A stretch of 64,000 nt of DNA, taken from assembly GCF_026210795.1 (NCBI RefSeq), contig NC_089429.1, positions 3,224,001 through 3,288,000 of the forward strand. Reading direction: 5' to 3'. Below the pieces are notes generated by a model. The model was given only the letters and a program-made list of their open reading frames with translations. It made no database searches and had not been told where the DNA came from. The position numbers and the translations under genes are program-made. The first letter of the stretch is position 1, and the number at the start of each line of letters is the position of its first letter. The DNA is from Rhizophagus irregularis. Its lineage: Eukaryota. Shown in pieces: positions 2,273-50,260 of the stretch.

Positions 2273-3105
2273 GTGCATTCATAAGCAACCCTTCTCAAAA
2301 TTCCTTGTTCTTTTTCACTTATTCTAATCTTATGATCAAATCCTTCTTTTAATGCAAATTTGTCCAACCACTTCTTGAATCTATCCCAACTTGCGAAAGT
2401 GAGCCCTGGGACCAATTCCAAAAGTTGATCATCATCTGATTCATCATCTTATAAAGTGTCATCTGACGTTGGCAAACTTGGCTCAGAAGGCTATTTAGAA
2501 ACATGAATAAATCAGACGAAATATTAACAAAAAGCCATGATAAGTAAATGGATAACCAACATACATATGACATGGGACATGTTGGAGAAGCATATTGTAT
2601 CAGAGTATTATCAGCATCTGGAGCAACAAATTATGTAGGTTGTGTCAGAGCGGTATCATCAATATTTGATGTGAAGTGTGCCAGAGTAGCAGCGTATCTA
2701 TCTGGAGTGTATGATATGAAATGTGTTAGAATATCATCAGCATATTGTTCATCTGGGGCAATATATGACGTGAGGTGTGTTGGAGAAGTATATTGTACAT
2801 ATGATGTGAGGTTTGTATATTGTTCATTTGTATCTAGAACTTTATCTTGTAAAGTGTTATCAAATGTTGACAGGTATGAATCAATAGGCTATTAAGAAAA
2901 AAATACAGTCAACTCTCTCTATAGTCACTCCCGTTATAGTCACATTCTACTATATAGTCACACCAGTTGAATGTTCAAAACAATTTATTATTAAAATCTA
3001 TCCTATATAGTCACAATCTATCTATAGTCACTATCACACTTATCCTCAAAAATCTTATATTAAAAAGAACCGTTTATAATCACAGTTATATAAAGAATAT
3101 ATTAA

Positions 3106-6100
3106 TTGCTAGTCCGGATAAGATCTGCAGTGACACATATAGCTATTTACTATAAAAATTGGGGATAAGTAACATATAAAAAATATATTGTTTTTGAATC
3201 TCAAAGTCGTCTCTTTTTTATGGCGCCTAAAGCTCGTGAAATTGTTGTTACCTTGTTAGTAGTAGGTTCTATACTATTAGACTTGCACTATGGGCCATAT
3301 TCGCGTCTTTGGTGGCAAAAAAATAGTGACAATAAAGAAAATGAAATCTCAAATTATTTTCCGATTCGTATTGGTCAAACCACAAAAGCTGTTCTAAATG
3401 AAATGGACTTTTATACCACTATTTTACTAGGAAATTCTGAAAACTCTTTTGCTCCTGGGTTTATTTGTACTTCAGGCGTCTTTTCAAGCAGTGTAGAAAG
3501 TAGTTCTTCTGCTGCAGTTTCGAATCTATACGCTAGCATATTTCAAAAACGAACGCGTTTTTCTGGTCCACTTGTAATAGGATGGAATGATAAGGATATA
3601 ATTTCACAATTATCTCAAAATATTCCTTTTTTTCCTTTCTCTTTTCTTCTTGGAAAATATCTAATATTTGTTTATAGTATTGGCACTTCATTACGCGAAG
3701 ATTGGAATAATGGTGGGTTAAGATACAAAGCTTCACTCAACAATAAATATCATGATAAACCGGCAATATTTGTATCTACAATTGAAGATAAAGATTGTAC
3801 ACTTGAAATTTATCAAGATTACAAAATTAAAAACCGGTTTGTAGCCAATTCTCCAAATGAAGTATGGGAAATTTCAAAGTTTATAAAACAATATAAAGGA
3901 ATCCAACTTTTTGGCCTTGAAAATTCCTTTACAAGAAAATTTATTCAAGAGAATTCAAAACCCACATGCTCGCCAGATAATTGGCACAATTTTCCTTTAT
4001 TAAAATCTGTATTTGATTACAATCTTAAACGTCGAACACTTGCAAATGTAAAATGGTATCAATTCTTTGAATCTTGGGCTAAGAGTGAAAATCCAATAAT
4101 TGAATTTACGTCTAGTCTTGAGAAACTTTATCCAAGTGAGTATGAGTTTAGTGATCGAGAATTGAGAGCATGGAAAACAACATTACGTGCTGCAGGTTGT
4201 CACAATATAACGCCTTGGTCATCTCATGAATCTGAGGTATGGTAATGTGTAAAAATTTATTTTTATGTATAATTTAATTTGTAAAAATATGTGTAGAAAA
4301 TAGAGTAACTAAAAATTATTAGTATGAAATATATTTCAATAGTAATTATTATAATTTAATTTAGTAAAAAGATATGGCAAAATATCATGTAAAGAAAGTA
4401 TAAATAGAATTTATCAAATTTTCGTTACAAAGTAATAAAAAATCTTATATGTTATAGTAGTATCCAAAAAGAGAAAAATATTCGAAGTATTATTTATACC
4501 AATTATTATTTTTTTTTTAAAAAAAAAAAAAAAATTACGGGCAAAAAAAAATTTAGATTCTCATGACCCGACCCATCAAAGAAAATTTATGATATAGCAA
4601 ATAACCACCATTTTTTTTATTATAAGCTAATAAAATAATATTCTATCATCACTCTAAGTGGCAATTTTGGACGCGGTCAATTGATTACAAAAAAGATGAG
4701 AATTTATTATACATGTTATATAAATCAGGATTTCTCCAGACCAAGCCCCGACATATTCCAAACCAAACTCTAATTTTTTGGGATTGCTTTATACGTGCAA
4801 TGATGATAAATAATAAGACTCCAGATGGCAAGCGACGTATATTATCAATTATTGCTGATGATTTTACATATGCTGAATTAGAATTACAATTGGGAGTAAG
4901 ATATTAGTTTCAAATTATATGAATAATTAATTCTTTATTTTAAATTCTAATATCAGATATTAAATATTTAAATTTAGGTCAGTGCACATACCATTCTTGA
5001 AGCCCGTAAACATGCACGATTTATTGGCTATGGTGCTCCACCACTATTCAAACCTATTGTTCAACGAGTTAAATTATCAGAGGAATCATTAGTTCAATTT
5101 GAAGTTTTTTTTTCAAACAAAGAAAATGTAAATATGAGTAGTTATAAGACCGATAGTGAAACTGGATTGCCTGTACTGTACCTTCAAGATACTAAAGCAT
5201 TGTTATGGAAGAAGTTTTCAGAATCATTCCCTAATGGTATGCGAAGAACTTCATTTATGACACGTCTCCAGGGAAATCGATATCAATATAAAGAGGATTT
5301 GGGAGGCCTATGCTCAACCTGTAATGAATGTGGATACGAAGTTTTTGTGGAGATTGAAGATTTGATTGACAATTATGTTTCTGATATTCAATTACGGGTA
5401 TATATTTACCTATTAATTAATGAATAAATTATTTTAGTATTTATACTTCTAATTTAAATTTTTAATAGAAAGAATTAAAAATACAAGCACAAGTTTTGAG
5501 ACGTTATTTGCGTAGAGATTTTGCAAAAGAATTGAATATTGATTCATCAGGTTGTGCGAAACATAGTAAATGTATCAGTCATTGCCTACCCCATGCATTT
5601 GGTGAATGTTATTTGGACCATCCAGATACTTGTGACAACTGTGAATCCCTTTTATCATTCTTTCGATACTTTACAAAATAGCCTTGAACAAGAACAACAA
5701 GAAAAGTTACCAGCCTATCAAAATCGGTTGATTATTTTTATGGCACATCATGCTCGCAAATCTTACCTCAATGCACAGTTTAATGCTCAATTCTCTCAAC
5801 TTGATTCAGATGGAGCTTTAATAATTGTAGATTATAAGATGAAAATTCTTCCCAAAAAAGCTCGTGAAACAAAAAATGAATGGTTCGGAAAAAGAGGATG
5901 GACGCTTCATTCTGTTCTTGTGTATACGAAAAATCTTGAAAATAATAACCTGGAAGTGCAAGCTTTTGACCGTTGGTCTGGAGATACTCGGCAGGATGGG
6001 TGGTTTACGGCGTCCTCATTACATTCAGTAATAGAAACTTTGGAGCGAAAACCAAAATGGGTTACTATTATTTCAGACAATGGAGGACATTACCGTAATA

Positions 6101-8552
6101 CAGAATTAATGATTATTATAGGCCATTGGAAGGAATGGAGTCCTCGTAGATGGTTATTTTTGGAAGCAGGTGAAGCAAAAACCGCAATAGACTCTCACCA
6201 TGCTCAGGTATGAACAAATACCTGATTTTTTTGTATTATTAGTAATTGATACATATTATTATTTGTTTTAGATTTCTCACGCAATAAAAAGATGGGTAAA
6301 AATAGGACATGAAATAGAAGAAGGAGAAGACATTGAAAATGCCATCAAAGACCTTTCAGGTACTCATGTATCTCATCTTGAACCAGATCGTGATAAAGGT
6401 AAATATTTAGTTTCGTTTTTTTTTTGTTGAGAAAATGAATGATAATATATTTTGAATAGAAAAAGGAAAATTAGGAACGATAAATGGTATATCAAATTGG
6501 CATGAGTTTACTTGGCCTGAAACAGGAGAGAACACTGGATATATATGTACCCGTGCGCTGCCAGAATTTGGTAATTGGAATAAAATTTCCCACTGTCAAA
6601 TTGATAAAATTACAAAATCACGCACCTTTGGAAAACCAACTCCGATCTATACAACACATACACAACCTTCAAAATCATGGACTGTACCATTGACATCAAG
6701 AAAAGGTAATTTTTTCAACAAAATTGTTCCGTAATTAATTTGTATTGACAAACATCATGCTTTTCAGAAAATACCCAAGGAGATCAAGAAATTCAGGAAG
6801 TAAGTAAAACGAAACATATCAATGTTTATTTTTCGTCAGGATACCTGATAAAAGAGTTGTAAACACTAAACAGGTTGAAGAAGAACAAATCGAAGATATG
6901 GATATTGATCCAATATCAAAAAGGTATGTTGTACTCCTCTATATCGTCAGTGTTATTTGAATTATCGTGAATATATTCATATTTTTTGTTTGTAGTGCCA
7001 TTGTATTTGGTTGTGGATGGGCACTATCTGAAAATTTAAAAGTGAATCAAAAAGTACCAACTAAACGAATCACAGAACATGTCAAGGGATTGCTTACTAT
7101 AATGTTTCACTCTGGTACTGCTAATCCTAGGCTCAAAATGAATGCTAATGAAATGCACGAGGAGCTTTTGAAAAGAGTGACTGATAACGAAATTTCCAAA
7201 GATGACGTACCAAAAGTTTCCACAATTGCGAATTGGATAACAAGCACGTCACGATCATTCAAGAAAACCATGGCACTAAGGCTTCTTGAGGAAGCGGAGT
7301 CATCTGAGCAATAAGTTTGTATTCAATTATGCAAATAAAATTAGATAATTTTGTTTTTGTTTTATTTACTATATAATTTGTATCACGATCCAATATATGA
7401 TTGTGGAAAGAAAATAATAATAATAAATCTATAGCTAAAAAAAAAAAAATTCTAATCTAATCGAACCTAAATCAATAATCTAAATTTAAAAAAAAATAAG
7501 ATTGCGAAATATTCTCAAATTGCACAACAAATTCAAAAGGACTAAAAGATAAAGAATAAAATCAATAAAAAAAAATAAAAATAAAATCAGAAAAAAGATC
7601 ACTTCAGAACCTCTAAAAAAATCACCGAAATTAAAGGATTCCAGGCAAATCGTTCCTAAAAGATAAAAAAAAAAATCAAAAAAAGAAACAAATCGAAACA
7701 ACACCCAGAAAAAAAGATCCCACTTCCGAATCTCATAAAAATTACCGTGAAATCCTAGGACAAAAAAGATCAATTTCCTCTCCAACTCATAAGAAAGACG
7801 AGAGCGATGAACTGTTACTAAAAGATAAATAAAAAAATCAATAAAAAGAGACAAAATAAAAAAAAATCTAGAATAAAAAGGAAAACCCTTCCCATCTTCG
7901 AACCTTAGAATAATATTTACCACAAAATCCAAGGATAAATCAACAAATTCTACTTTGGATCCATAAAGAAAGAGAAACAACGCGAGGACGAACTGTTTCT
8001 AAATATTGATCTACAAAAAAATTTACAATGAAATAAATCAACTAAATAGAAATATTTCCAACTTCCGAATACATAAACTGTTTCTAATGATGAAAAATAA
8101 AATCAATAAAAAGAAAAAAAAAATCGTAATCACCAAAAAACTTACCACGAAATCCTTAAATCTAAGAAAAATAGAACTCAATGTTGACAAAAAAACTGTG
8201 GTGTCGTAACTTTTTGAGGAGTCTAAACCTTTCAAATAAACAAAATTTATATTACTTTATTATGGAAAATTGCTAAATGCATATTTTATAATTTTCATAA
8301 TTTTCTTGGAATCCAGCGTTCGTACATAGTAAAGTCGTTAAAAATACAACTAAAGACTGTTTTATGAAGGCTTATTCGAATTCTCTGGCCTTTTTTGCAT
8401 TAGATCGTATGATTTTTGTGTGCACAAAAATAGTTTGTGTAAACTTACTATTTAAGCGTTTTGTGCCATATTGAAGTGTTCAATAAGTGATCGGCAAAAT
8501 TTTACCCCAAATTCTTATATCAAATTTCTGCTGATCATATCCGAATCGGCAA
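3106..8552 (+). mobile_element. Sola3-like DNA transposon with TTAA TSD and TTGC termini
   Basis: TTAA at 3102-3105 and 8553-8556; the empty site is visible at ~30190 in the sister MITE. Imperfect 25-bp TIR TTGCTAGTCCGGATAAGATCTGCAG vs TTGCCGATTCGGATATGATCAGCAG. Confidence 0.8.
3220..7314 (+). pseudogene. Spliced Sola3-like DDD transposase with at least one frameshift
   Basis: GT-AG exons approx. 3220-4236, 4659-4895, 4978-5397, 5469-6207, 6272-6398, 6460-6705, small exons, 6996-7314. Motifs VDYKMKILP, WFGKRGWTLH, ISDNGGHY, FLEAGEAKTAIDSHH and a Cys-rich region. Frameshift near 5660. The Sola3 assignment is from motif recall. Confidence 0.7.
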
Positions 8553-8652
8553 TTAAATAACTTGGCATCTAATAATCGTACAAAGATGTATCATAGCTTG
8601 TTAGAATCGTCTCACTGAGACGAATCGAATGGTGGTAGTTTTATCCTTTTCC

Positions 8653-9928
8653 TTTGCTAGTATTTACGGCCAGACCACCCATTGCCTCTTATGAGACTAA
8701 TTTCGGGTCTGTGTCCTATCATCTTCAATGGGTAACCATTAAACCGAGTACTTAATTCCTCAGGTAACAGCACCACTACAGAAGACATCATCCATCAGGC
8801 CACATTTAAGGCTGATCTGAAGCTAGGAATACACTGCCTACTCATCCTATACCCATTGCATGATACTGGTACTCAATTTATTTTACGACCTTTAGAGAGC
8901 ACCTACAGGTAGCATTAACCATCTAGTACCCTTCCATAAGGACCCCGGATATCTAATATAAAGGTCATAATGGACTTTTGGCCAAAAACACCCCTTTTTG
9001 CTGAAACTCAAAAAATCGTTTTTTGTAAATATCTCAGCATCCAGTAATTCAATTTTAATGAACTTTTTTTTATTTTGTAGCCCTCATTTAGCTCTACAAT
9101 TTAAAAAAAAGTTCATCAAAATTGGACCACTGGATGCCGAGATATTTACAAAAAACGATTTTTTAACCCCTGAAAAATGGGCCAATCTGCCGAAAGTGTG
9201 ACTTATGACCTGTTTTGGAGATATCCGGGGTCCTCTTTCATACCACCATTTTAGGTACGAGGTTTCACTCAAAGGCTACTACAGTCCGTGATTACCTAGC
9301 ACTGATAGTACGGTTGTTTACCCCCAAGCGGTATACAGAGTGACCACTCCGATAATAAGCTTACACATCTGTTCAGGATCACCTCTTATGGTGGGTATCA
9401 ACTACCAGGGATCACCAACCAGGACCCAAAGAGTAGGGAATCGAACTCCATAACCATGCTACCTGTTCTGTGCACGAACACCTTGGTTGGCCTAAGACCT
9501 AACAGAAGGTCTAACTACCACTAAGATATTGCACCCTCAGCTTTACCATCTATGACGACCATCTAGCCATTACTGACCTCAAGCGGTATCGTAGAGTGAC
9601 CACCTGGACAGGAAGTCCCCCCTAAGGTATAGTAGTAACTAGTGACCTCAAAGACAGGACTGTGCACATGCCAATGGCCTCATAGGGTAACGGGCGTTGT
9701 GGTTGACATTGCTTAATTTTGGGCCAAATGTGCAGCCTAACCATACACACTAATTCACTATGATGCAGTCCAATTACGCTAATCTCTGTACCTTCACGCT
9801 ATTAGTTGTAGTGTCTGCAATAAAATTCGTTTAATTTCTGTGATTGGTGGAATTGAACCTGTGACCTCATACTCAGGCTTAATGAGGGTCTCAGTCACTT
9901 ACCACTGAAAAAGGGTGATCAACCCTTT
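8653..9928 (-). mobile_element. ~1-kb tRNA-headed SINE-like element, type-1 3' end, containing MITE 8939-9234
   Basis: Homologous to 30290-31266. B-box-like motifs on the minus strand near 9855 and 9440. The 3' end abuts AGTTTTATCCTTTTCC (8637-8652). Confidence 0.8.
8939..9234. mobile_element. MITE with AGGAC termini and 8-bp TSD (Merlin/MULE-like; superfamily uncertain)
   Basis: Perfect 16-bp TIR AGGACCCCGGATATCT; TSD CTTCCATA/CTTTCATA. The empty site is seen in the other SINE copies. Confidence 0.88.
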
Positions 9929-10409
9929 TGGTGCATCTTTCTACGATTATTGGATGCCAAGTTATTATGTGAAACGTAATATTTTTAGGTTTCGACAATT
10001 TTGACATGTTGAAACTATTTCGGCATTTCAGCATTTCGACAGATTTTAGTTTCAACATTTCGACAATAGCCTGTAAAATTTCAGCAGGCAACTTTATACT
10101 TAGCCTCATGAAAATTAAAATACAAGTAGATTTAACTTGCTGAACAACCTTACTTAAGCATAAAAGATAATTTGATATAATCAAAGTGGTGAGTAATAAA
10201 ATTATATTTTAAAGTAGTATTGTGATCCAGATGAATCCATCATCCGTTCAATTCAGTCCAAAAATAAATGGATGATCTGGATGAAAATCTGATTTAATCT
10301 AAATGGAAAAAGTTATATGTACAATCTGGATGATTTGGATCTAATCTGTTAAAATATAGAGATAATAGATAGCGGATTGGTCCAGATGAATGATCTGAAT
10401 GATCCAGAC

Positions 10410-29552: not shown

Positions 29553-30289
29553 TATATATATATATTAATAAAATTAATATTTTAAAAAAAAATTATTTCA
29601 GTATACTCTATATTATATGTATCATGTAATACTAGATTACTAATTAGTAATTACTATGGTGCAGAACCTCTATAATAGGAACTTAAAAAATTTTAAATAA
29701 AATTTGATTTTATGGTTGAATTTTAATTTTATAAAAAAAATTAAACTCCATTTATTAAAAAGAATTGATTTATAAAATAAAAAAAGTCTCAATTTTTCAG
29801 ATTATGTAAGCATCACGTGATACATATATTAACCAATCAGAAATTAGGATTTTATAAGTTATATGATATAAAATTTATATAGTAATATATTTATTTATTG
29901 TATTTCATTATAAACTGATGAATCAGGTATACAATGATAAGATTTGTATTTTATTATATGTATTTTTTGACCAAATTAAAAATTAAAGTAATACAGTCAA
30001 CTCCCTCTATAGTCACTCCCGTTATAGTCACATTCTACTATATAGTCACACCAGTTGAATGTTCAAAACACTTTATTATTAAAATCTATCCTATATAGTC
30101 ACAATCTATCTATAGTCACTATCACACCTATCCTCAAAAATCTTATATTAAAAAGAACCGTTTATAATCACAGTTATATAAAGAATATATTAAATAACTT
30201 GGCATCTAATAATCGTACAAAGATGTATCATAACTTGTTAGAATCGTCTCACTGAGACGAATCGAATGGCGGTAGTTTTATCCTTTTCC

Positions 30290-31266
30290 TTTGCTAGTAT
30301 TTACGGCCAGACCACCCATTGCCTCTTGGCAGACTAATCTCGGCTGTGTCCTATCATCTTCAATGGGTAACCATTAAACCGAATACTTAATTCCTCAGGT
30401 AACAGCACCACTATAGAAGACATCCCCCATCGGGCCATTTTAGGCTGATCTGAAGCTAGGTACACACCGCCTACTCATCCTATACCCATTGCATGATACT
30501 GATACTCAATTTATTTTACGACCTTTAGAGAGCATCTACTTTCATGGAGGACTTTCGACAGGTAACATCAACCATCTAGTACCCTTCCATACCACCATTT
30601 TAGGTACTAAGTCTCACTCAAAGCCACTACAGCCCGCGATTACCCAGCACCGATAGTACAGTTGTTTACCCCAAGTGGTATACTTTGTAGTGACCACTCG
30701 AACAGGAAGTAGCAGGCATCTGTCCAGGATCACCCCTTATGGTGGGTATCAACCACCAGGGATCACCAACCAGAACCCAAGGAGTAGGGAATCGAACCCC
30801 ATAACCATGCTACCTGTTCTGTGCACGAACACTTTGGTTGGCCTAAGACCTAACAGAAGGTCAAACTACCACTAAGATATTGCACCCTCAGCTTTACCAT
30901 CTAGGACGACCATCTAGCCATTACTGACCCCAAGTGGTATCGTAGAGTGACCACCCGGACAGGAAGTCCCCCCAAAGTATAGTAGTGACCTCAAGGACAG
31001 GACTGCGCACATACCAATGGCCTCATAGGGAACGTTAGAAGGACACCACGACCCTTAGTTGAAATGTGCGGCCTAACCGTACACACTAATTCACCATGAT
31101 GCAGTCCAACTACACTAATCCCTGTACCTTCACGCTATTGGTTGTAGCGTCTGCAGTAAAATTCTTTTTATTTTCGTGGTCATGGAAATCGAACCTGTGA
31201 TCTCACCATACTCAGGCTTAATGAGGGTCTCAGTGACTAACCACTGAGATAGGGTGACCAACCCTT
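30290..31266 (-). mobile_element. Full-length uninterrupted tRNA-headed SINE-like element (977 bp), type-1 3' end
   Basis: Cloverleaf-like head with GGTTCGATTTCC; second B-box GGTTCGATTCCC near 30790; no T5 run on the sense strand; no conserved ORF; flanked by the 16-bp repeat. Confidence 0.8.
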
Positions 31267-31539
31267 AGTTTTATCCTTTTCCTGTGCAAACAGTCTTATG
31301 ACTTTATCTTTTATTTATATTTTAAATTTCGAAAACATAATCGAACAGTATTACAAAAATAAGAAAATAAACTAATAAAAAATAAAAAGAGTAGCTTCAC
31401 GACTCATACAAGTAAAGAAATCTAAACTAAAATAAAATCAAAGCAAAGAAAAACTAAACTATTACAGAATCGCATACCCCAACTTTACCCGAAGGCCAGT
31501 GTGAGTCAACTATCCAACATCCAAAAATCCAGTTCGTTA

Positions 31540-34500
31540 CCAGAAAGAAATCCTAAGAGGTTGAACTGTTAAGTGGCGCAGAAAATCCAGGTGCGAGATC
31601 CATGATCACCCCGAATTATAGAAGAGGATATCCAAGAAATCCAGGAATCCTGAGAAACTGTCGCCAAAGAAGAGTTGTGTTTTTGTGAAGAAGTAGCAAA
31701 AGAGGAGAAATTTGTATACGGGCCATGTAATTTGGAAGCAGCCGAGATACCCTGCGACTCTTCCCAAGCATGGAAAAGAACGTTCTGACACAACCAAATC
31801 TCACCATAAAGTTCGACTTGGAAGTTATTAAGAAGAGGAGAAATAATCTTATATATGACAGAAAGAGGAAAATGTTGGTGTAAAAATGCCGTTAAATGCG
31901 CAGGTAAAAGTCCTCTAGTAAGCCAAAGACAGGACGGAGAAGGAGAATCATAGTCCCAACAATCTAGAGCAAAAAATCCAATTTGGAAGGTAATATCCAG
32001 AGGTTTCAGAGTTGAGAACGAAGATAAGCAGGAATCTCTAAATTTAATAATTTCAGAACGATGTGTCAAGCACGGATTTAAATCCGGAAGAATATAAGGA
32101 CAAGTCCAAAGATAATTCAAATCTTCAGGAGCTGAGTTGCATTGTGGACAAAGCCAATCGGGAGAATACAAATAAGGTTTGCGTTGTTGAAGAGTAGTTA
32201 AAGTAGGCAACATATCCAAAAGGAGTTTGATACGAAAGATCCAGAATTCAGAACGACCATTCTTATGCGAAGCAAAACCTTTAATTTGTGAAAGGCAAAA
32301 ATATATACCAGCCCAGTCAAAAAGCGAAAGAGAACCAAGAGCAGTAAAGCGTGCCAGTGAACAGAAAGATAAAAGAGCACGAGCGTCTGCTATAGAGCGG
32401 AGAAAATGACGAATATTCATGTCAATAGGCAAAGAGTTAAAAGTTAACAAGCATGGAGCATAACAAAATGCCAAAGGCGAAACAGTAGGTTGTAAAGACG
32501 AATGAGCATCTTTAGCCAGAGAATCCGCTTGTATATTGTAGATGTCATCGCCATGAGCAGGGACTTTAATCAAATCGACTTTAAGATTACGATCCATGAT
32601 AAGTTGTCGAATAAAAAGCCAAAGAAGATGATTAGGTTCTCGAAGCAACTTCGGTGAGAAGGGAGAATCAACTAAACGTGTCCATAATGAAATTAATTGA
32701 CTACAATCAGTATAAATGGAGATTGAAGAGTCATGGGAGAGGGCATTCAATCCTAATAAAACAGCATAAATTTCAGAACGTAGAGCTGAAGGGAAACAAG
32801 AAGGAAGATGCATGGATGAAGATTCAAGGATAAATCCATCATCATCAAGAGCAATCCAAGCAGAAGCCATGGAAGAAGATAAAGAATCTTTGGCAGGACG
32901 GAAAGAACCATCGGTATACAGAGATTGTACAGAAGGCGGCAAGACAACTGCTTCTATCCCATTCTTAACGGGAGGAGAAAGGGTGAAAGAAGCGGTTGAA
33001 GGCGGGTTCGTCAAGTGAACAAGAGCCAAAGAGGTAGCAAAACTCCAGGAAGTAGATAAGGTTATGGGAAGATAAGCCGCAAATACTTTGGCATTTCTGG
33101 TAGGATAACCCATAGTATCCGATAGGATTACATTGAAAAAACACTTTTCGCTATTACAGCGTTGTTTAATGGCAGATTTTCTGGACAATGCGGGAATGTT
33201 AAGAGCACAGCCAGGACAAGGGTTACAGGTTCGTTCATCAGCCGAGGTAGATACAGGAAGCCAATGAGACATAATAGCCGAGTTTTGTTTACCTGAGGTG
33301 ATACATACACGGCCAACAGATAAAGTTTGAGTAGCAGAATCAAGATTAATAGCCCATTGAGGATAAAAATGATAATCTTTAACAGTATGATCTAATAAAC
33401 AAGGAGAAGCTAAAGTAAAAGAAGAATTAATATAATACAAAGACAAAAGTAAAGAAGAAGAAGAAGAAGAAAGTAAGTTATTTTTAATAAAATTAAACCA
33501 AATAGGAATTCGTCCTTTACGACCAATAATACCAAGGTATTGAAGATCAAGCCAATTCATAAGATAGCGTCCACAAGGAGAAACCAATTGAGCAAGCACA
33601 AATAAATTCAAGTTTTTCCAAAGTTTCCAACTTGTTTGAAATATGGAATGTGGTAGAATAGATCGAGGTAGAGACGGATATTGTGATTACGCCTCAGAGG
33701 CCGGAAGGAAAGAGACCACGTGATATTAAGTCGTGAAGAAAACAGAAGGGCATTAAATAAAGTATGTGTCCGTAAAGAAACAATTTGTGACCACGGCTCT
33801 AGGTTGATGATAGTTGGACAGCTTTCCGCGCTTAAAAAGCCTTGAAGATATGAAATAGCATAACTGGCAAACTCTCTAAAATCTGGATGGGTAAAAATTT
33901 TTTGCCAAGAAGCTACATGAGAAGAGAGAAATCAGTAAAAGGCATTTTGAATAGAGAAAGGAAGTTTCAAGAAGAGCAAAGCTAATGGAGTAGTAGCGGC
34001 GAGACCAGCTTTCCTTCTTATGACTGAAAACATGGGTGTAACAATTGATTGAATAGTGTTTTCAGAGAAGAGAGTAGTTTGAAGTCGAAATTTCAATCGC
34101 GGCAGGAGGACAGCATTGTAGAGATAGGCCACATGTTGCGCCAATAGTTTTTTTGGGCTAAGGAGAGCAGCCATATCTTTGACCATAGAGCGCGCTTGTT
34201 TAAGCACAAATTGGGAAAGAGGCAGATAAAGAAAACCAAACTCCTAAAAAACGGAAAGAAGTGTTCAAAGACAAAGAGGAAAGGGAGAGAGCCAAGTTGG
34301 AAACTAAAGGCGAAGGTGAAAGATCAAAAACAATCCTCAAAGAAGGGGAAGAAAACGAAAGAAGAACATATTTAGCTGAATTAGCTTGAACATTATTTAA
34401 AGTATAAAATTCAGCAGTAATAGAGAGGCGATCTTCAATTCCAGCTTTCGAAGAAGCTACAAGTGTAGAATCATCCATGAAAGTTAAATGTGAAATTGGT

Positions 34501-36923
34501 AAAGAATGTTGTTCAAATTCAAGTGGAGAATAATCTAAGAGAGCTGAAGATTTCAAGACAAAAGGATCTCGTTCATCTCGATTTAAAACAGTGAGTAGAG
34601 GGTTCAAATAAATAACCCAAAGTAAAGGCGAAATGATTTCTCCTTGATCGATACCAACACGTATTCAGTAAGCAGCTGTATCGCCATGACAAGTTAAAAT
34701 TTTGTTGTTACGTCATGTAAAAAGATTCAAAATAAATTGCACTAAAAGTGCAGGAATGTGTAATCTAATTAAAGCTAATTTAAGCATATTCAAATCCATA
34801 GAGTCAAAAGCTTTAGAGATATCTTGAGAAACGATCCATAGTTCCTGATCATCAGAAGAATCATGTTTATGCTGATGGATAATCGCATCAAGCATTTTGA
34901 TAGGAACATCAGTGGAACCACCAGGTAAACCCGCAAAGTTGCCTCCTTGCAGAATTTTACCATCAGCAAGGATATTAGAAAGACGATTAGTGACAACCTT
35001 AACTACACATTTTCGAACCGTTTCCAGAAGAGTAATAGGTCGAGTGTTCTTGAGCTGAGCATCAAAGTCATGAGGTTTAGGAATGGGATAAATCACGGCT
35101 TCACGCCAGTCAGCAGGAATATCACCGCGAGAAAGGCAAGTATTGGCAATTAAAAGAGAGAAATCCAAGGCTTTACCGGACAAATATTTAATCATCTCAT
35201 AAGAAATTTTTGAAGGGCCGGAAGCTTTGTTATTAGGCATGGAGGAGATCACAGCAGACCATTCTTGTAGAGAAATAGGTGCCAATACAGGATCATATAA
35301 AGAAGCGGACACACCAGAGAGGGGAGTGTAAGCTTATTGCCACCGAGCAGAAAATAAAGCAGTGGAAGAATGATGGACCAACGGAGGAGAAACAATAGAT
35401 TGAAAATGGGCAATAGCAGCTTGTTTAATGTCCGAAAGATCCGTCAAAAGAGTAGGAGTAGAGTCCAGGACAACCAGGACGTGGTCAAGAACAATCGAAC
35501 GTTTTTCAACTGATAGAGCAGAGTCTATAAAGGTGCCGAGCGAATTCGAAAAGTGTTCATCACGTAATGCGGTATAGTATTCCACAGAGTCTGTGAGATG
35601 TTGGGCGAATTTAGTAGATAAAAAGGCAGAAACTAAATTCTTCTGCGATCGTAAAAATGATTTAAATGCAGATACAGGAGTTGTGGAATAGGTAGGAACT
35701 GAATAATCAGGAAGCAAGGATGCAAAATTCTCAAGATGGGAAGGTAAAGCAGCAGTCATTTGCGCAATTTGAGTAGGCCGATTGGAACGACGAGTAGTAA
35801 GGCGATATAAAAATCGATCTAAAAACTTGTTAATAGCAATAAGTTTAGTTAATTCAGGAGAGTACGAATGTCGATGTGTGTTGGAGACTTTTTGAAAGGG
35901 TAATGTTTCAATTGCAGCACTAAGTATAGCAGCTTTCAAAGCATGCCACATACGATCAAGAGAAAGAGAAGAGAAATCAAGACGAGAGCTATATTGTCTA
36001 TCTAAATAAACTCCAAGAGAATCATCCACTTCAGCAGTAAAATTATTCCATTGTTCAGTTGAAGTGGAAGTATAAGAGAAAATAGTACGCATTTCTTTTT
36101 TTTGTTTAAGTCGAGATTTAGCCAAAATAGCAAAACAAGAACTGAAATCAAAAATAGTTGTAAGAACTTTGTGATCGGTAAAAGGACGATCCAGAAGATT
36201 AGGACAAGCGACCACTTGCGAAAAAAGAGCAGGAGCAGGAAAACCAGGCGAAGACCAGATATAATCCAGTCGGGAAGAACCATTGGCATAATAAAAAGTG
36301 GGATCAGGACCATTAATAGAAGAATGAGCTTGATGGTCGGTAAAAACCCAAGAAGAAAGTAAACGAAGAAGTTTAAAATGATTGGATGAGTAGTGGGAAT
36401 GAGCGACTTCATCAATGTTGAAATCGCCAAGGATAATTACAAAATAATCATTAGTTCAGGCATGATCGAGCCAAGAAAAAAGTTTGGCAATAAGATCATT
36501 ACAAATAGATTGATGAACAGAACCAGAAGGAGGATAATATAAAGAAATAATAGAAATTTTTGTTTGATGAAAAAAAAGGTCTAATTTAAGAAGACGACCG
36601 TTCCAGGAATCAATTGTTTGAACATGTTTATGAAGGGGATTACGTAATAAAATACCAACACCGTCATGAAGACGAGAAGAAGATGAGCAGGCCCAATAGG
36701 ACCTAAAATGATGTTGGAAATGTTCATTTTTGAAAATAAATTTAGCATTTGAAGGGGAAAGGCGGGTATCATTAATAGATAAAGCTCCAAAAGAAGAATG
36801 AAGAAAAAAATTAAGCAAATGTTGCTGTCGAACCGGAGAACATAAACCATTAACATTAATTTGACCAAATTTGATAAGAGGAGAAGGGTGAGGAGAAAAG
36901 TTATGTATTTTGTTGTCCATCAT
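31540..36923 (-). pseudogene. LINE A ORF2 (APE - RT - RNase H - CCHC), broken
   Basis: GQINVNGL, SRLDYIW, TDHK; KASGPSKI, RPITLLE, QDISKAFDS, FMDD; LYTDGS, RSEIYA, YTDC, KVPAH..NIQADSLAK; CPQC. Multiple stops and frameshifts. Confidence 0.92.
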
Positions 36924-37766
36924 TACTACACTATGATAAAAGGGTAAGTAGTAAAGGGAAATAATTGGGAGTTAAGAATTATTGGGAGTTCGCGTTATCG
37001 CAAGCAGCCAAGAATTGTTTTTGTTGAGCCATGCCTTGTTGAACTGTTTTAGTGAGTTCGGTAACTGTAGCAGTAAGAGAGGAAAGGCGATCTTGTGGTG
37101 AAGTGGCAGGACCAAGGATCAAACTCATACGGGGAGGGAGAGGAATATGCGATTGAGCAGTGAAATTGGGGCCATTTGGTGGCGAAGCTGGAGAACTAAA
37201 ATCCATGAGATTGTCACTAAGACGTCTAGGATCAGAGGATTCAGCATTATCCCATCCTTGATTCATAGGCTCTGGTACAGGAACAAGGGGAGTCTGAGGA
37301 TGCGGGATTTTGGAGATAAGAGGAGGAGAAGAAGAATGTTGATCTTCCAACCATTTGACATGATGTTGAAGTTGGGCAAATTCTGTAGTGAGGTGAGTAA
37401 TCTCTTCAAGTATAATAGTGATTTGTTCAGTAATATATTGCCAATCCATCAAAGGCGGAACATCCATTGCAGCAATGTCGTGATCCAAATCCGATTGAGA
37501 AGAACGATGAGGATGACGACGATTATTAGGATGAGAGCGTGAACGTGAAGATCTAGGGCGAGATTTGGATCGGGAAGGAACTCTTCTACCAGCGGTATCA
37601 GCATAAGAGCTGTGTTCTGAATTAGCAGGACGCGCAAAACGATTATGACGTTTAGCGGGGTGGGAAGGAGGTAAGTGTTTGTTGTATAATTCACGCAATT
37701 TATCATTGCTAGACCATGGACGAGAAGGACGTTGCGGAGCACGTGATGAAGCACATTTGTCCGGAT

Positions 37767-38863
37767 TAGAGCTCCGCACGGGTCAGGTCAGGTCGAGTAA
37801 TTTGTCTGATCCAAACCGAAAAATTTTTATCAGGTCGGGTCGGGTCGGGTAACCTGCTCTGACCCGACCTGACCCGTCTGACCTGAAAGTATTCAGGTCA
37901 TTTTTCTATAAAATAATATGAAAAAACGCTGTTTTGGCGATTTTTTTCATAAAAGAAGTGGGGAAAAATGCCGTTTCGGCATTTTTCCATTAAATAATAT
38001 GAAAAAACGCTGCTTTGGCGATTTTTTTTATAAAAGAAGTGAAAAAAATGCCGTTTTGGCATTTTTACATAAAATAATATGAAAAAATGCCGTTTTGGCG
38101 ATTTTTTTCATAAAAGAAGTGAAAAAAAATGCCAAAACGGCATTTTTCCATAAGATAAATGAAAAAATGCCACTTTGGCGATTGTTTCATAAAAGAAGTG
38201 AAAAAAATGCCGCTTTGGCAATTTTTTTCATAAAAGAAGTGGAAAAAAATGCTGTTTGGGCATTTTTCCATTAAATAATATGAAAAAACGCCGTTTTGGC
38301 GATTTTTTTCATAAAAGAAGTGGGAAAAAATGCCGAAATGGCATTTTTCCATAAAATAATATGAAAAAAGCCGCTTTGGCAATTTTTTTCATAAAAGAAG
38401 TGAAAAAAAATGCCAAACCGGCATTTTTCCATAAAATAATATGAAAAAACGCCGTTTTGGCGATTTTTTTTCATAAAAGAAGTGAAAAAAAATGCCGAAA
38501 CAGCATTTTTCCATAAAATAATATGAAAAAACGCCATTTTGGCGATTTTTTTCATAAAAGAAGTGAAAAAAATGCTGAAACGGCATTTTTCCATAAAATA
38601 AAATGAAAAACGCCATTTTGGCGTATTTGTTTATAAAAAACAATGCTGAAACGGCGTTTTTTTCATAAGGTAACATGAAAAAACACCATTTCAGAGTATA
38701 AACATTTTTTTTGAGCTAAAGTATTCGGGTTAACAGGTCAATCGGGTCAGGTCAAACCTGTAACCCGACCTGATACCGGGTCACGAATTTGACAACCTGA
38801 CCTGAATATTTTGGGTCAATCCGACGGGTCACCTGAATTGACTCTTACCCGTGCGGAGCTCTA
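37767..38863. mobile_element. TAGAGCTCC-family non-autonomous hAT element with an internal ~40-bp minisatellite
   Basis: Perfect 17-bp TIR TAGAGCTCCGCACGGGT; TSD GTCCGGAT/GTCCAGAT; tandem repeats at 37905-38690. Confidence 0.92.
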
Positions 38864-39339
38864 GTCCAGATTACAACCAGGGCGACCACAACGATGACAA
38901 AGAGAGGAGACTTCGGTAGGTTCATGCCAAGTAAGGCCAGTAGATTTGAGAGCACAAGTGATCCCCATAGCCGATTCTTTAGTAGCAGCAGAGGAGAAGT
39001 GTACATAGGCATAAGGTTTGGCCCTATAAAAAATATGTATACGGTTTTTATACTGTATATACGTATTTTTGATACAGTTTGCATTTTTACATACGGCATA
39101 TCAGTATAATGTATACTGTTCGCAAAATGTGCTTAGTAAAAAATACAATAAAGTATACGGTAAACATACTGTGTGATACAGTATATTAAATTCATACGTC
39201 TATAACGTATATCATTTCTACTGTATATCAGTATTTTGTATACGGTTCACAAAAATATTGTAAATAAAGGATACGGTATACGTATTATTCTACAGTATAT
39301 TAAAATTCATACGTTTATAACGTATTTTCTACAGATATA

Positions 39340-41085
39340 CACAGGTCAAATAAATAAAAATTAGATTTTTGCCCTTTTTAATATGGCTGTCTGATTTTTT
39401 GGCAATTTTAATATAATATTTCCGATTTTAATAATATTTCTGATTTTTAACATGAAATTGCCGATTTTTGGTTATTTGTAATAGGATTTTTCGATTTTAA
39501 TATATAACATGTGATTATGTATTACGGTTTAATATTTATTTATTAACTTAGATTTTTTTTTTTTATTTCAGTTATAATTATTTTTTTGCCTTAAAAACTT
39601 TACTAAAATACTTTTTAAATACTTTATAAAATAGAATTAAAATATTTTTTTTCTTAAATATAAATACATTTAAATTAAATAACTCATAATTTAAAATATA
39701 AACAAATATTATATTTTTTTTATATATATTTCAAAGTATGGTTTGAGCATTTTGGCTGAAGTAAATCTTATTCTTTTAATTAAAAGTAGTTTAGTAAGTT
39801 TAAAACTGTTAAGATCATAAAAGTACAGTTAATATTTTTGGAATTATTTACATTTTTTATATTATACAATAGTATTAAGTTACAAATTTTTTTACCTTCA
39901 GAGCGTATTTTGAGATCTTTAGCCAAAGTAAATCAACTTCTTATATTAATTGTAAGTTGTTCGGCAGGTTAAAATCTACTTGGATATTAATTTTCACGAA
40001 GGTACAGTTAATACTTGATGAGTTATTTACAATTTTCACAACAGTACTTATTCACGACTTTTATTTTTTTCATTTTGTCACTTCAGAGCGTATTTTGAGC
40101 ACTTTATCCAAAGTAAACCAACTTCTTATATTAATTGAAAGTTGTTTAGCATGTCAAAATCTACTTGAATATTAATTTTCACGAGGGTACAGTTAATACT
40201 TGATGAGTTATTCACGATTTTCACAATGGTACTCATTTACGAATTTTATTTTTTTCCGTTTTGTCACTTCAGAGCGTATTTTGAGCACTTTAGTCAAAGC
40301 AAATCGACTTCTTTTATTAATTGAAAGTTGTTTAGCATGTCAAAATCTACTTGAATATTAATTTTCACGAAGGTACAGTTAATACTTGATGAGTTATTCA
40401 CGATTTTCACAATGGTACTCATTTACGAATTTTATTTTTTTCCGTTTTGTCACTTCAGAGCGTATTTTGAGCACTTTAGTCAAAGTAAATCGACTTCCTT
40501 TATTAATTGAAAGTTGTTCAGCAGGTCAAAATCTACTTGGATATTAATTTTTACGAAGGTACAGTTAATACTTGATGAGTTATTCACGATTTTCACAACG
40601 GTACTCATTTACGAATTTTATTTTTTCCATTTTGTTACTTCAGAGCGTATTTTAAGCACTTTAGCCAAAGTAAATCGACTTCTTTTATTAATTAAAAATT
40701 GTTCAGCAGCTTAGAATCTACTTGAATATTTATTTTAATGAAGGCACAGTTAATATTTGTGGAGTTATTAATTTTTTATAATTGTGCGTATTGCATTAAA
40801 TTACAAGTAAATTTATATTCTTAATGTATTTTGTTTAAAATTAATTAATTATTTATTTAAGATTAGTTTTTTATTTAATATTGCTTAATAAAATATTTTT
40901 TAAATTTTAATTCAATATTACAATATAATTTTTTATAAAAATATATATTTCATAATGTATATACAATTTTTTTGTATAGTGAAAAAACTGAAAAATGTGG
41001 TTAAGAATTGGTAATACGGCTGTAAAAAGTCACAAATCGGACAAATATAGCTAAAATCAGCCAATTTTTATTTATTTGACGTGTG
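39340..41085. mobile_element. CAC-ended (CACTA-like) element carrying ~185-bp repeats
   Basis: TIR CACA(G/C)GTCAAATAAATAAAAATT; TSD ATA. CTTCAGAGCGTATTTT recurs at ~39896, 40081, 40267, 40453 and 40638. Confidence 0.75.
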
Positions 41086-41157
41086 ATAGAGTAAGTTTTT
41101 CTACACTTTAAAGCATCAAACAATACTAGTATCTGCTAATATGTACTACCCAAAAAC

Positions 41158-41400
41158 TAGAGGTAGGGTCCGGTCATCCGTTCAATCCGTTATTTCATCC
41201 GATCACGTGATGTAGATCACGGGTATGTAGATCATATCCTTTTAGGCGATACCCGTTCCACAAAAATATTTTTCTAAAAATCGATCTTACCGATTTTGGA
41301 AATTAGTGTAACATTCGACCTAAAAAAGGAAATGATCGACACAAATCACGTGATTTGACCGGATGACCGGATTTACGTTTTTCACCGGAGCCTACCTCTA
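41158..41400. mobile_element. hAT-type MITE
   Basis: TIR TAGAGGTAGG(G/C)TCCGGT; TSD CCAAAAAC. Confidence 0.9.
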
Positions 41401-41539
41401 CCAAAAACTCACTGATGTAAAATCACAATTATTAAAAAATTCACAAGAATTTTTGTTAATACTGTTTAATTTTTAAGTTCAAAGTCCGATTGATAATACT
41501 AAATTCAAAACTCAATTATAAATCATTTTTATAAATTAT

Positions 41540-43220
41540 AATTTAAAAATTAAGCAGTATTAAGGAAAATTCTCATGAATTTTTCTTAATACTACTTAAT
41601 ACTAATTTAACTAATTTAGTATTAAGGTTTTAATTTAAAAATTAAGCAGTATCAAGGAAAATTCTTGCGAATTTTTCTTAATACTGCTTAATTCTAATTT
41701 AACTAATTTAGTATTAAGGTTTTAATTTAAAAATTAAGCAGTATCAAGGAAAATTCTTGCGAATTTTTCTTAATACTGCTTAATTCTAATTTAACTAATT
41801 TAGTATTAAAGCTTTAATTTAAAAATTAAGCAGTATCAAGGAAAATTCTTGCGAATTTTTCTTAATACTGCTTATATCTGCCAATTCGTGAAATTAGCCA
41901 AACATAAAGATTTGCACATTTTAACAAGAATTATGTTTCACAAGCTTAAATTGTATGTGTTACATAATCAGATGATCTAAATCTATCAAAAAATAAAAAA
42001 AAATTTTTTAACGTTTATTCAAAAATAACAATGGCAACTACTTTCTTTTACAATCACTTTTCAATCACTTTTCAATCAGATTTTTGTTAGGTGACTTAGA
42101 AAAGTTTATAGGCATATATAGCAGGTTTTTTTTAATCAGTAAGTAAGAAAACAAATATTAATAATTTTTATTAATAAGAAAAATCTTTTTTCATTTATTT
42201 TTAACCTTATTTCCTTTTTTTTTTTAGTAAAAATATATACAAAATAAAAATGTGAGTTATGATTTAGAGTTTTTGAGATGTTTTTTTTTGTTTTTTACTA
42301 TACTAATTTTATTCTACTTGTTAATTACTTTTTAAAATTGATTTTATTAATTTATTCAATTTAAAACAGAAATGGCAAATAAAAACTTGTTAAGTAAAGT
42401 AAAAAGAGCCCAATAATACCTGTAAAGATCATCTTTTGGTAAGAATTATAATTTTAAAAATTTTTGTGTCAGAGTTTTATTCAATTAACAAAATCGTTAA
42501 TATCTCGGCGTACATGTATGCTAAACACATATATTTATATTCATATGAAAGCCCAGAATCTACTCTACCTGAACGAAAAAAGATTATTCAAATCGAATTA
42601 CTAGATGTGAAGATATTAGCGATCAAAGTCAAAGGTTAAAAATAAATATATTGAACGTAATTATTCAGCAACTTGTGATCCAATTCATGTGATATTTGGT
42701 TTATGGATAGCTCTTGATTACCTCTTTCTAATGAATATAAATTCATTCATCTAGCACACATACACGTTAAGTTATTCAATATTTTGTCATGACAATTATA
42801 TTTAAATTTTTTAATTTTAATGATATTATTAAAAAAATCAAAAAATAATATAATCAAATCAATTTTATTTATATCAGCGGTGTGAATCTATCATTTTCAT
42901 GTAAGTTGTATTAGCATTTTCTTAATAAAGTTAGTTTTTTGAATATAAAAACTTAATTCCATAAATCAGTCCATATGTTAATTCTAATTTAACTAATTTA
43001 GTAGTATTAAGGCTTTAATTTAAAAATTAAGCAGTATCAAGGAAAATTCTTGCGAATTTTTCTTAATACTGCTTAATTCTAATTTAACTAATTTAATATT
43101 AAAGCTTTAATTTAAAAATTAAGCAGTATCAAAGAAAATTCTCAAATTTTTCTTAATTCTAATTTAGCTAATTTAGTATTAAGGCTTTAATTTAAAAATT
43201 AAGAAAAATTTTTACAAATT
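41540..43220. repeat. 92-bp hairpin-containing tandem repeat, interrupted by an insert (41875-42977, TTA flanks)
   Basis: ATTAAGCAGTAT at 41549, 41641, 41733 and 41825; the array resumes at 42978. Confidence 0.85.
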
Positions 43221-46175
43221 TTCTTATTAAAAAAAAGAACTTTTAAATTACTAATTAAACTTTAAAAACAATCTGTATGATTTAAATTTTAAAAAAATAC
43301 TTCTGCTTTTTAATTTTCGCATTTCTACATTTAACCAATTAAAATTCAGCTGATCGCCGATCACATGCATTAATAACACGTTATTGTTTATTTTTTGTTT
43401 ATTTTTTCAAAAATATTCTTTTCTCTTCTTTTTTTTAGAAAAAAAAGACAATAAAAATGAATACCAAAATTATTTTAACATATAATAATAAAAATTAAAT
43501 AAAAAACTTATTTTGATAATATATAATATATATATTTGTACCAAACTACTAATTATACAAAAAGTGATATGCACGTATATCAATTAACAATTACTTTCAC
43601 TAATATCTCTCTGGAATTGTAATGGTGAATTTTAACAATATTAATTAAACAACTATATGTACACCGTTTTATGTTTTTATTTTTATATTAATATTATATG
43701 TTAACATATATTAATTATATTTTTTTTTTACTTTTATGTATTTTATTTAATTTTTTTAATATATTACTAACATTACTTCTATCGTTTTATTACTTTTTTA
43801 TATCTAACTAATATATTAATAATATTACTAACTTTTTATTATTTTTTTTTACTAACCTTTTATTATTCCTTTTTTATATTTAAAATAATGATAATATTAC
43901 TAATTAAATTTCTTTTTTTTTTGTTTATATTTTGCTAATATTATTTTTTTTACAAATAGTATATTATTTTATACTAGTTTTTTATTTATATTATTTATAA
44001 AAAAATATTTGTATATTTAATATTATTTAATAAAAATTTTATTGATTATAAATGCATTTTAAATTCTGTTTGCAAATATAAAATATACGATTTAATTGAA
44101 TAATATATACTATTTATCAGTACAAAATATGCAGTTTAAACTGGAAAAAAGTACTGTTTATCAGTATAAAATATACAGTTTATCCTGGAAAAGTATACTG
44201 TTCGCATTATAAAATATAAAACAATATACTGTTTATTGGTATAAAACATACGGTTTTTCTACTGTTTACAAGTATAAAACATACGGGTGAAACTGGAAAA
44301 ATATACTGTATGCAAACCGTATATATGATACGGTGTGCAGAATACCGAATATATACAGTATGTGAAAATACTGTAATTATACGGTAATAATACTATAAAT
44401 ATACTGTTCGCAAAATACGAAAATACAGTATACTAACCGTATATATATTTTTTATAGGGTGGGATTGTAAGAGTTGTAGGAGAAAGGGATGTTAACGCTT
44501 TTAGCGGAAACTTCTTCGGCAATTTCAGAAAGGTCAGCGGCAACAGAACCGCGTAGCGCCAGCAAGTGCAACATGAGCGCGTTTGACAGCGCGTTGATCA
44601 GGTGAATGAGAAGCAGGACAGACGCGTAAGCAGTATCCAGTACAAAGTACAGCCCACGTGTTTTCAAATTGATCCATGGAGGCGGCGGAGTCAAAAACTA
44701 TATACGCAGTGTGATAAAGTTTTGAAAGACGCGTGCGGCAGTGGGTAACAATACCATAACGGGAGAATGTGCCCCTTAATTGTGCATCGGTGACAAAGAG
44801 AGGGATGTCGGTAACTACCAGGGTACAAAGCTGTTCATCTGCCTTTTTAGCAGATGGGTCATGCTCGTGGAACTGTAGATCATGCAGGGAGGCGATAGGC
44901 GTAGCGATAGCTTTTTCCATATCAGGTTTGGAACGAAAGTAGACAACGATAAGTTTATTATCGCCTGATCCTTGAGTGGTAGCTTTACTACCATAAGAGG
45001 AAAAAGAGGAGAATTCTTGGTCGGTCGCGTCGCAAGCTTCGTGATTGGTTTTGAAGTGGGTCAAAATTCTTCAATAGTAGAGGGCGCAGCCGCAGCGCCC
45101 GCCGAAGGGGGAAGATTGTATAGCGGCAGTAGACGTGTCAGGAGACGCAGCGCGTTCGAGGTTCAGGAGGTGAAATTTCCACAGATTTTCCTTTATCTGC
45201 AGAGTTAGAAGGGGAATGTTGAGTCGTCATGGGAAGTACGAGTCGGGGAGGCGAAGGGGACGCGTTGGTGTCAACGAGAGGGGGAGACAAAGTTGAAGTA
45301 TTTTCCTGAGGAGCAGGAGGAGTCAAAATATTGTCTTGGTCCATAACAGGTTCAGAAGAAACCCGTGTGCGTTTTGCAAAGTTGTCGGTCAAAGGTTGCG
45401 AAGTAGGACCAGGAGTAGAAGCAGAAGAACCTTGACCTTGAACGTTGCCAGAAGGAGGACTCTGGGCAGGACGTTTTGGAGCAGAAGTACCAGAAGCTTT
45501 ATTATTTCGTCTGTTAGTCATAGCTAAAAGTAGAAGGGAGAACTAAAATATGTAATAGTTAGTAGTAACGCAAAGTAAATAATAAAAATACTTCAAAAAA
45601 ATCTTTTTTATTTTTTGTCGCAATATTGTCATGAAGGCAGTTTTATCCTTTTCCTTTGCTAATGTTTACGGCCAGACCACCCATTGCCTCTTATGAGACT
45701 AATCTCGGGTCATGTCCTATCATCTTCAATAGGCAACCATTATACCGAGACTTAATTCCTCAGGTAACAGCACCACTATAGAAGACATCCCCCATCGGGC
45801 CATTATAGGCTGATCGGAAGCTAGCGAGACACGCCGCCTACTTATCCTATACCCATTGCCCATTGCATACTGATACTCAATTTATTTAACGACCTTTAGA
45901 GAGCATCTACTTTCATGGAGGACTTTCGACAGGTAACATCAACCATCTAGTACCCTTCCATACCACCATTTTAGGTACTAAGTCTCACTCAAAGGCCACT
46001 ACAGCCCGCGATTACCTAGCACCGATAGTACAGTTGTTTACCCCAAGTGGTATACTTTGTAGTGACCACTCGGATAGAAGTAGCAGGCTTCTGTCCAGGA
46101 TCACCCCTTATGGTGGGTATCAACCACCAGGGATCACCAACCAGGACCCAAGAAGTGGGGAATCGAACCCCATAA

Positions 46176-50107: not shown

Positions 50108-50260
50108 TTTGCTAATGTTTACGTCCGACCACCATTCACTCTTATGAGACTAATCTTGGGTCTGTGTCCTATCATCTTCAATGGGCAACCATTATACCGA
50201 GTACTTAATTTTTCAGGTAACAGCACCACTATAGAAGACATCCCCCATCGGGCCATTATA
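50108..50260 (-). mobile_element. 5'-truncated SINE-like unit (153 bp), type-1 3' end
   Basis: Matches 45655-~45807 and lies between two copies of the 16-bp repeat. Confidence 0.85.

Follow-up and report, generated by a model that had tools for sequence, protein, structure and literature searches.

The stretch of Rhizophagus irregularis DNA presented above belongs to a repeat-rich contiguous segment of 64,000 nucleotides, hereafter the window, in which one junction between a DNA transposon and a SINE occurs twice. Positions 8556-8690 are near-identical to 30193-30327, including GAATGG(T/C)GGT, the 16-mer AGTTTTATCCTTTTCC and then the 3' end of a minus-strand SINE, just as the first-pass annotation had noticed. 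That annotation saw in the pair two independent hits on the same nucleotide by a retroelement that uses repeats as targets, in the manner of Tx1L of Xenopus, and the question is whether a retroelement returned to one base of its host or whether one composite was copied. The general proposal of a Tx1L-like element repeatedly striking one nucleotide of a DNA transposon is supported by tandem arrays with exact duplications, by the existence of empty sites, by 5' truncations at varying points and by a LINE occupying the same site. The locus also contains features beyond that annotation, namely a nested MITE, the missing duplication partner of the flagged SINE (S1), the missing right end of its host copy, further 16-mers at 31267, 45639, 50092 and 50261, as well as another target site, which bears an array too (50748-60820). 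Overall, LINEs and SINEs lie in tandem at two fixed points of the host, and we consider it likely that they do so since the LINE endonuclease nicks those sequences and primes reverse transcription.

The host transposon is represented by a full-length copy, H1, and by a MITE derivative, H2 (Table 1), with TA-flanked CAGT ends. The copy starting at 2906 had been called a MITE, which needs correction: 2906-3105 lies 5.45 kb from the junction, and the interior in between is coding and holds an intron-split transposase-like gene. Judged by short length, lack of coding capacity and the presence of both terminal repeats, H2 and the metagenome locus L018 are MITEs and the copy at 2906 is not. No right terminal repeat of H1 was found in the 64-kb window. 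When compared to public contigs, the H1 gene has a 1-base frameshift at 5664 and a 9-base loss at 6138. A Pfam profile search of this gene gave no match, while the neighbours of its protein by feature similarity were DUF7869 clusters at 0.90, a lead only; DUF7869 is presumably linked to Sola-type transposases. Sola1/3 elements have been reported in Rhizophagus (PMC5751038). To judge from its deletion joint, which is the same in 4/4 public runs compared and also in L018, the MITE (29994-60859) is a derivative of a transposase-bearing full-length parent (H1) without 3106-8555.

Table 1. Features of the host transposon copies, the two target sites and the inserted elements (window positions).
Feature	Position	Strand	Remarks
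Host left terminus, copy H1	2906..3105	+	TA then CAGT..., GTGACTATA subterminal repeats; 3 differences from 29994-30193
H1 transposase-like gene, intron-split	3169..7316	+	ORF with 96-97% identity to R. irregularis hypothetical proteins P0003/P0004
Target-left, first subterminal hairpin-type unit of the host	8556..8636	+	ends GAATCGAATGGTGGT
Site 1 16-mer AGTTTTATCCTTTTCC beside S1	8637..8652	+	present on the left alone; partner lacking at the 5' end of S1
SINE S1	8653..9928	-	tail type 1; divergent block 9686-9726; head alleles like L009
MITE nested in S1	8939..9234		296 bp; 8-bp flanking duplication with one mismatch
16-mer TGGTGCATCTTTCTAC and hairpin arm of a different host element	9929..9965	+	cut geometry as at site 1
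Left part of MITE copy H2	29994..30273	+	internal deletion joins H1 positions 3105 and 8556
Site 1 duplication 1	30274..30289	+	16-mer
SINE A	30290..31266	-	full length, 977 bp; tail type 1; tRNA-like head
Site 1 duplication 2	31267..31282	+	16-mer
LINE1	31283..45638	-	ORF1 (RRM), ORF2 (APE endonuclease, RT, RNase H); stops, frameshifts
Site 1 duplication 3	45639..45654	+	16-mer
SINE B	45655..50091	-	full length; tail type 1; DNA transposon nested at 46176-49627
Site 1 duplication 4	50092..50107	+	16-mer
SINE C	50108..50260	-	5'-truncated (153 bp); tail type 1
Site 1 duplication 5	50261..50276	+	16-mer; native target-right comes next
Middle part of MITE H2	50277..50747	+	further hairpin-type units, empty
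Site 2 15-mer ATAATCACCAAATAT, duplication 1	50748..50762	+	others at 51232, 59256, 60806
SINE F	50763..51231	+	5'-truncated; tail type 2
LINE2	51247..59255	+	organised as LINE1; identity to LINE1 64-70% in ORF2 and 83% over the final 400 bp
SINE D	59271..60805	+	full-length head; tail type 2; MITE nested at 59863-60386
Right terminus of MITE H2	60821..60859	+	inverted copy of the left end, then TA

The first hairpin-type unit folds as DNA no better than shuffled sequences (z -1.28), so that 'hairpin' names an imperfect inverted arrangement rather than a proven structure. The GAGACGAATCGAATGGTGGT unit was also observed in the window at 1036-2002, 50377-50640 and 62600-62856, within unrelated palindromic elements, and in 17 fungal-type metagenome loci (L002-L020), as a conserved cis-motif. 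Besides, a palindromic hairpin-type MITE at 62464-62991 is missing from the matching stretch of locus L013 (1-759), and the difference is an insertion polymorphism with TA duplication.

The evidence for targeting comes mainly from the interior of H2. The 16-mer occurs six times in the window, every copy being exact, against an expectation of 0.22 even with up to 2 mismatches allowed, and six copies were reached in 0/100 shuffles. Five of the copies lie inside H2 and the sixth at the left junction of S1, all of them adjoining element ends. Within H2 the order is SINE A, LINE1, SINE B and truncated SINE C, with one 16-mer between neighbours, until host sequence resumes at 50277. SINEs A and B differ at 52/913 columns, and SINE C carries several private changes although it is predicted to be the newest, which goes against the inferred insertion order. 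The second array, 470 bases past the first and in the opposite orientation, has the truncated SINE F, LINE2 and SINE D with the 15-mer between neighbours, and this 15-mer is found in 4 exact copies in the window (0.07 expected), all at element ends. The LINEs are flanked by duplications at both ends, and the SINEs, which are non-coding (no ORF of 120 aa), combine target duplications with 5' truncations (C, F). Altogether, the window has 4/4 tail-1 and 2/2 tail-2 SINE 3' ends on target, and its two complete LINEs likewise; these come from only 2 hosts, and searches that set out from the target or the window favour on-target cases.

Some members of the arrays harbor DNA elements of their own. 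LINE1 holds two (37767-38863 and about 39022-44459), the latter being a 5.4-kb AT-rich element within ORF1 with CCC...GGG ends, a 3-base flanking repeat and 186-bp and 92-bp tandem arrays; a 184-186-bp repeat forms three dispersed arrays in the window (14784-15323, 27697-28893 and 39709-40785) that are 70-93% alike. The transposon in SINE B has GGGG ends, a TAA duplication and a single 657-aa frame with a weak ISAZ013-type DDE match in Pfam, and we take it to be Zator-like. The MITE nested in S1 is presumably hAT-like.

Sequences from outside the window provide the empty and occupied forms of these sites. Scanning metagenome contigs for the target-left hairpin motif yielded 19 loci, of which L004 and L015 were dropped as GC-rich chance matches and 17 of fungal type were kept. 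The hairpin pattern returned 0 viral loci and 3 chance matches in prokaryotes, the 16-mer with its right context matched a single viral locus by chance, and the SINE 3'-end pattern, an unbiased search, had 0 loci in metagenome, viral and prokaryote contigs. Locus L018, a complete MITE, has each target in a single copy and holds no insert, with 2 differences from H2 in the left 298 bases. Locus L009, a MITE of the same type, is empty at site 2 but holds at site 1 a SINE whose head is different and which borders directly on a 15-base copy of that site. Across the 17 loci 0/31 target-left matches were occupied, L018 alone being of the exact site-1 type, and 9/11 hairpin motif copies in the window are empty, which indicates that most hairpin units have not been struck. 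The middle of H2 (50277-50747) is about 8% divergent from L018 and has one repeat unit fewer, and both outer arms are almost identical; the switches in divergence coincide with the two arrays, hinting at recombination there.

In contigs of two public runs compared with 49950-50900, the left context of site 1 was found empty in at least 10 contigs (X1) and the right context of site 2 in at least 5 contigs (X4). SINE 5' ends of at least three lengths were joined to the site-1 target-right in public contigs (equivalents of 50088, 50210 and 50786), and public contigs matching 2800-10300 contained SINE-SINE tandems with the site-1 spacer and also with two variant spacers, which have the same pyrimidine-rich ending motif as site 1. 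Additionally, 12 of 85 public proteins close to LINE1 or LINE2 have a non-LINE leader; in 3/12 (P0128, P0118 and P0221) the leader is site-1 context in the expected orientation, and the other 9 could be tied to neither site. The P0128 gene model runs from SINE tail 1 through the duplication into a LINE1-type ORF2 truncated at a new point. Because L018 is empty, L009 is occupied, other truncation points exist and P0128 records a further fusion, these comparisons confirm at the sequence level that separate insertions have repeatedly taken place at the same base of the host.

The flagged copy S1 requires a more cautious reading. The differences from SINE A described earlier are present, with the unrelated block placed at 9686-9726 and about 20 bp deleted after 8906. 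With the block set aside, S1 and A are unlike at 84/916 columns and their host flanks at 5/298-299 (Fisher p=2e-6), and the branches are asymmetric, with 65 S1-only columns against 18 A-only ones. Such unequal, asymmetric divergence rules out a plain duplication of one composite (S1 with H1, A with H2). The first-pass annotation had held that equal divergence of host and SINE along their length would indicate such a duplication; the comparison gave inequality overall and a flank-like value in the 121 columns nearest the junction (5/121, p=0.16). The independent insertion proposed for S1 thus agrees with the total divergence, while the part beside the junction and the rare alleles that S1 shares with A, described below, weaken it; moreover, the block and the differing head are located in that portion of S1 which recombination likely brought in from another locus. 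The divergence of the left arms, tried as an insertion clock for S1, was rejected, as the arm lies 5.4 kb away and hardly varies across the family. C>T or G>A changes account for 36/65 S1-only columns, as expected of an old methylated copy, and CG methylation of transposable elements has been reported (PMC8647823).

At its 5' end S1 adjoins TGGTGCATCTTTCTAC and a foreign hairpin arm, 16 bases before the equivalent cut, and an empty form of this right flank is seen as loose ends before 9929 in 19 and 12 contigs of two public runs. S1 is therefore likely a recombinant, with a site-1 junction on its left and an older SINE from another locus on its right. It would have begun as a site 1 insertion, in H1 or in a MITE copy, and later have undergone recombination with a SINE of greater age that occupied the equivalent cut of another element, an exchange that would have taken away both the duplication partner of S1 and the right end of H1. 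As a recombinant, S1 would itself record two insertions at equivalent cuts.

A possible reading, to which we give somewhat less than even weight, is that S1 and A descend from one ancestral site-1 SINE insertion that was copied with its host, recombination later having put S1 behind a young H1 and replaced its 5' part. Among the 27 minority alleles of S1 that were listed, A shares 6 and B none (p=0.02), and C and D likewise none, as would be seen if part of S1 had a common origin with A, even though a small source subfamily would yield shared rare alleles as well. The flank-like stretch beside the junction points in the same direction. Moreover, recombination occurred in any case, given that S1 is without its duplication partner and the host without its right end, and the body of H1 departs from public contigs by just some 7 substitutions and 3 indels in 5.3 kb, with S1 far from its family. 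Against a single event stand the strong branch asymmetry and the position three bases before the 16-mer, at which H2 groups with the empty L018 rather than with H1 (one CpG site, a weak pointer); H1 is also the outgroup to this pair, H2 and L018 having one deletion in common. Even if the pair is one event, targeting still holds for the arrays. The S1/A pair alone does not prove two insertions, and it is weaker proof than the neighbouring arrays.

How the address is set must be considered in the light of the proteins. Both LINEs, which are interrupted by stops and frameshifts, have Pfam domains PF00076, PF03372/PF14529 and PF00078, plus the RNase H domain PF00075, and the combination of ORF1 with an ORF2 bearing APE endonuclease and RT is a layout common to several clades besides Tx1. 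Compared with PDB structures, the RT matched R2 (2e-19) and human L1 (3e-16, over a longer stretch) about equally, and the endonuclease domain had no significant match. The nearest relatives of the LINE proteins are from Rhizophagus or are unnamed, the closest being all from R. irregularis, and none was found among viral contigs by protein alignment. The endonucleases of LINE1 and LINE2 differ at many positions. It was observed that both (36459-36971 and 53424-54400) read N-D-T where APE enzymes usually read Q-E-T; the other catalytic motifs of both look intact by the residue roles that we presume. A third and more distantly related LINE was also noted on the minus strand at 11860-17380, in fragments that several DNA elements interrupt, and its 3' end was not found within these fragments.

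The SINEs of both arrays have head and body in common, and their last ~270 bases are unrelated, which defines tail types 1 and 2. Neither tail matches the 3' UTR of LINE1 or LINE2, and L1-type partners need no shared 3' tail. By position, tail-1 SINEs appear to use site 1 together with LINE1, and tail-2 SINEs site 2 together with LINE2; which protein moves which SINE we infer from this co-location only, and a simple pairing is opposed by the unmatched tails and by the two LINEs, which end alike yet occupy different sites. When the last 100 bases of SINEs and LINEs were folded, no common stem appeared. The SINE heads gave no match with ARAGORN at default settings or with Rfam, the latter returning only weak hairpin-driven hits, and at an 85% threshold a tRNA-like fold was obtained for 3/5 heads compared to 3/200 shuffles; A- and B-box likeness was judged against what we take to be the consensus. 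Between L009 (reverse strand 600-650) and window 31190-31266 a swapped segment of about 35 bases stands out from a remainder that is 93-94% alike, which suggests that heads were exchanged with different tRNA-like donors.

The mechanism that we propose builds on observations, namely two arrays with exact duplications, both sites in the empty state, members whose 5' truncation points differ and, in other assemblies, site 1 occupied by LINE1-type sequence. At site 1, the plus strand would be nicked first, just behind the 16-mer (…YTTYY(A/C)C^RAT) and within the arm of the hairpin-type unit that is common to many DNA elements of these fungi. The cDNA would be primed from this nick, at the 3' side of the element, after the model of established target-primed reverse transcription, and a second nick 15-16 bases away would give the duplication. 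As the duplication copy at the 5' side of the element would keep the full cut context, the next insertion would occur there and the array would grow. The same steps would apply to site 2 on the other strand. We favour the specificity of the endonuclease as the putative setter of the address.

Alternatively, the site could be set mainly by the RNA, with read-through into the duplicated target annealing to a loosely nicked target so that a lineage returns to the site of its parent. This would agree with exact 3' junctions that are without poly(A) or repeat tail, with SINE tails in which, as in the first 65-100 bases downstream, T never occurs four or more times in a row, and with two LINEs of near-identical 3' ends at two different sites; co-transcription with the target has been discussed for R2 and SINEU (PMC4494074). 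Nevertheless, tail-1 SINEs also occur at the variant spacers, several bases off site 1, and endonucleases that differ at many positions can explain two sites without any memory in the RNA, which makes this alternative unlikely. Equally doubtful is a broader version in which the MITE is a two-site landing pad: one SINE body would have swapped tails to follow two LINE lineages, the address would be inherited through the target flank on the RNA and not by the endonuclease alone, and, the site 1 motif being common to many DNA transposons, a whole class of them would be parasitised.

Another model would have the LINEs guided, as in Dictyostelium, by the Pol III-type head of a SINE and inserting at a set distance upstream of it, with only the SINEs reading the transposon sequence. 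The LINE 3' end indeed lies 15-16 bases upstream of a full-length SINE head in both arrays, and integration some 15 bp or 4-50 bp upstream of tRNA genes has been described for other elements (PMC5006619). SINEs, which have no enzyme of their own, however, share the duplication where no head lies downstream (B, F, the first insertions and P0128), and LINE and SINE duplications match to the base at both sites, so that this homing is improbable. It is scarcely credible that there is no targeting at all, the 16-mer being part of the ends of the elements or the arrays products of unequal crossing over or misassembly, since repetitive arrays and a rearranged S1 are outweighed by the single copies of the 16-mer and 15-mer in the empty MITE (the 16-mer as a part of the elements is ruled out by L018), by members that are different elements (LINE, full and truncated SINEs, 6-9% apart) and by equivalent junctions in independent runs and gene models. 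Nicking by a sequence-specific LINE endonuclease thus remains our preferred explanation.

The closest known system is that of SINEU-3 and Tx1-Mar, which insert in Mariner-N4_AMi of crocodilians (Kojima, 2015; PMC4494074). As in the locus described here, a SINE and a LINE share one site of a non-autonomous DNA transposon with a 16-base duplication, tandem copies sandwich one duplication, and truncated copies argue against hitchhiking. The R. irregularis system differs in its fungal host, the tRNA-like SINE head instead of U1/U2, the RNase H of the LINE, two sites of opposite orientation in one 0.95-kb element, each with its own SINE tail, and a target motif common to other DNA elements. The same source gives an on-target figure of 90% for the crocodilian system, which has no counterpart in R. 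irregularis, and regards a family as target-specific when more than 20% of its copies are flanked by the target (PMC4494074). Tx1L of Xenopus laevis, which inserts in Tx1D as summarised in PMC4494074, is likewise an APE-type LINE at a fixed point of a DNA transposon, with a different host superfamily and target, and enzyme specificity has been shown for Tx1L only; the comparison of LINE1 and LINE2 with the Tx1 clade concerns likeness in behaviour, not clade assignment. The dictyostelid TRE5 and DGLT-A elements (PMC5006619) resemble the two LINE cases in their short fixed distance from a Pol III-type head, whereas the duplication described here has a fixed sequence and is used also without any such head.

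Families of R. irregularis including SINE, LINE/L1-Tx1 and LINE/I were listed by Oliveira et al. (2024; PMC11075540), whose library may contain the families described here; insertion sites or nesting of families are not mentioned in the passages considered ('nested' has 0 matches). No target-specific LINEs or SINEs of arbuscular mycorrhizal fungi were found in the open-access literature, and Repbase or the supplements of PMC11075540 may hold them. The habit itself is known from frogs and crocodilians, and what is new is the fungal host, the LINE bearing an RNase H and the two sites used by tail-swapped SINEs.

Altogether, the locus would represent a sequence-specific LINE-SINE system in an arbuscular mycorrhizal fungus. 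Two LINEs with two targets and near-identical RNA ends, along with a SINE body with two tails, provide a natural paired test of whether the endonuclease, the RNA tail or the co-transcribed flank sets the site. A retro-integrase specific for 15-16 bases in fungi would also be of interest for tool building. Finally, the arrays explain how a 0.95-kb element grew to 31 kb, and they offer recombination points for genome rearrangement in a fungus that is thought to be largely clonal.
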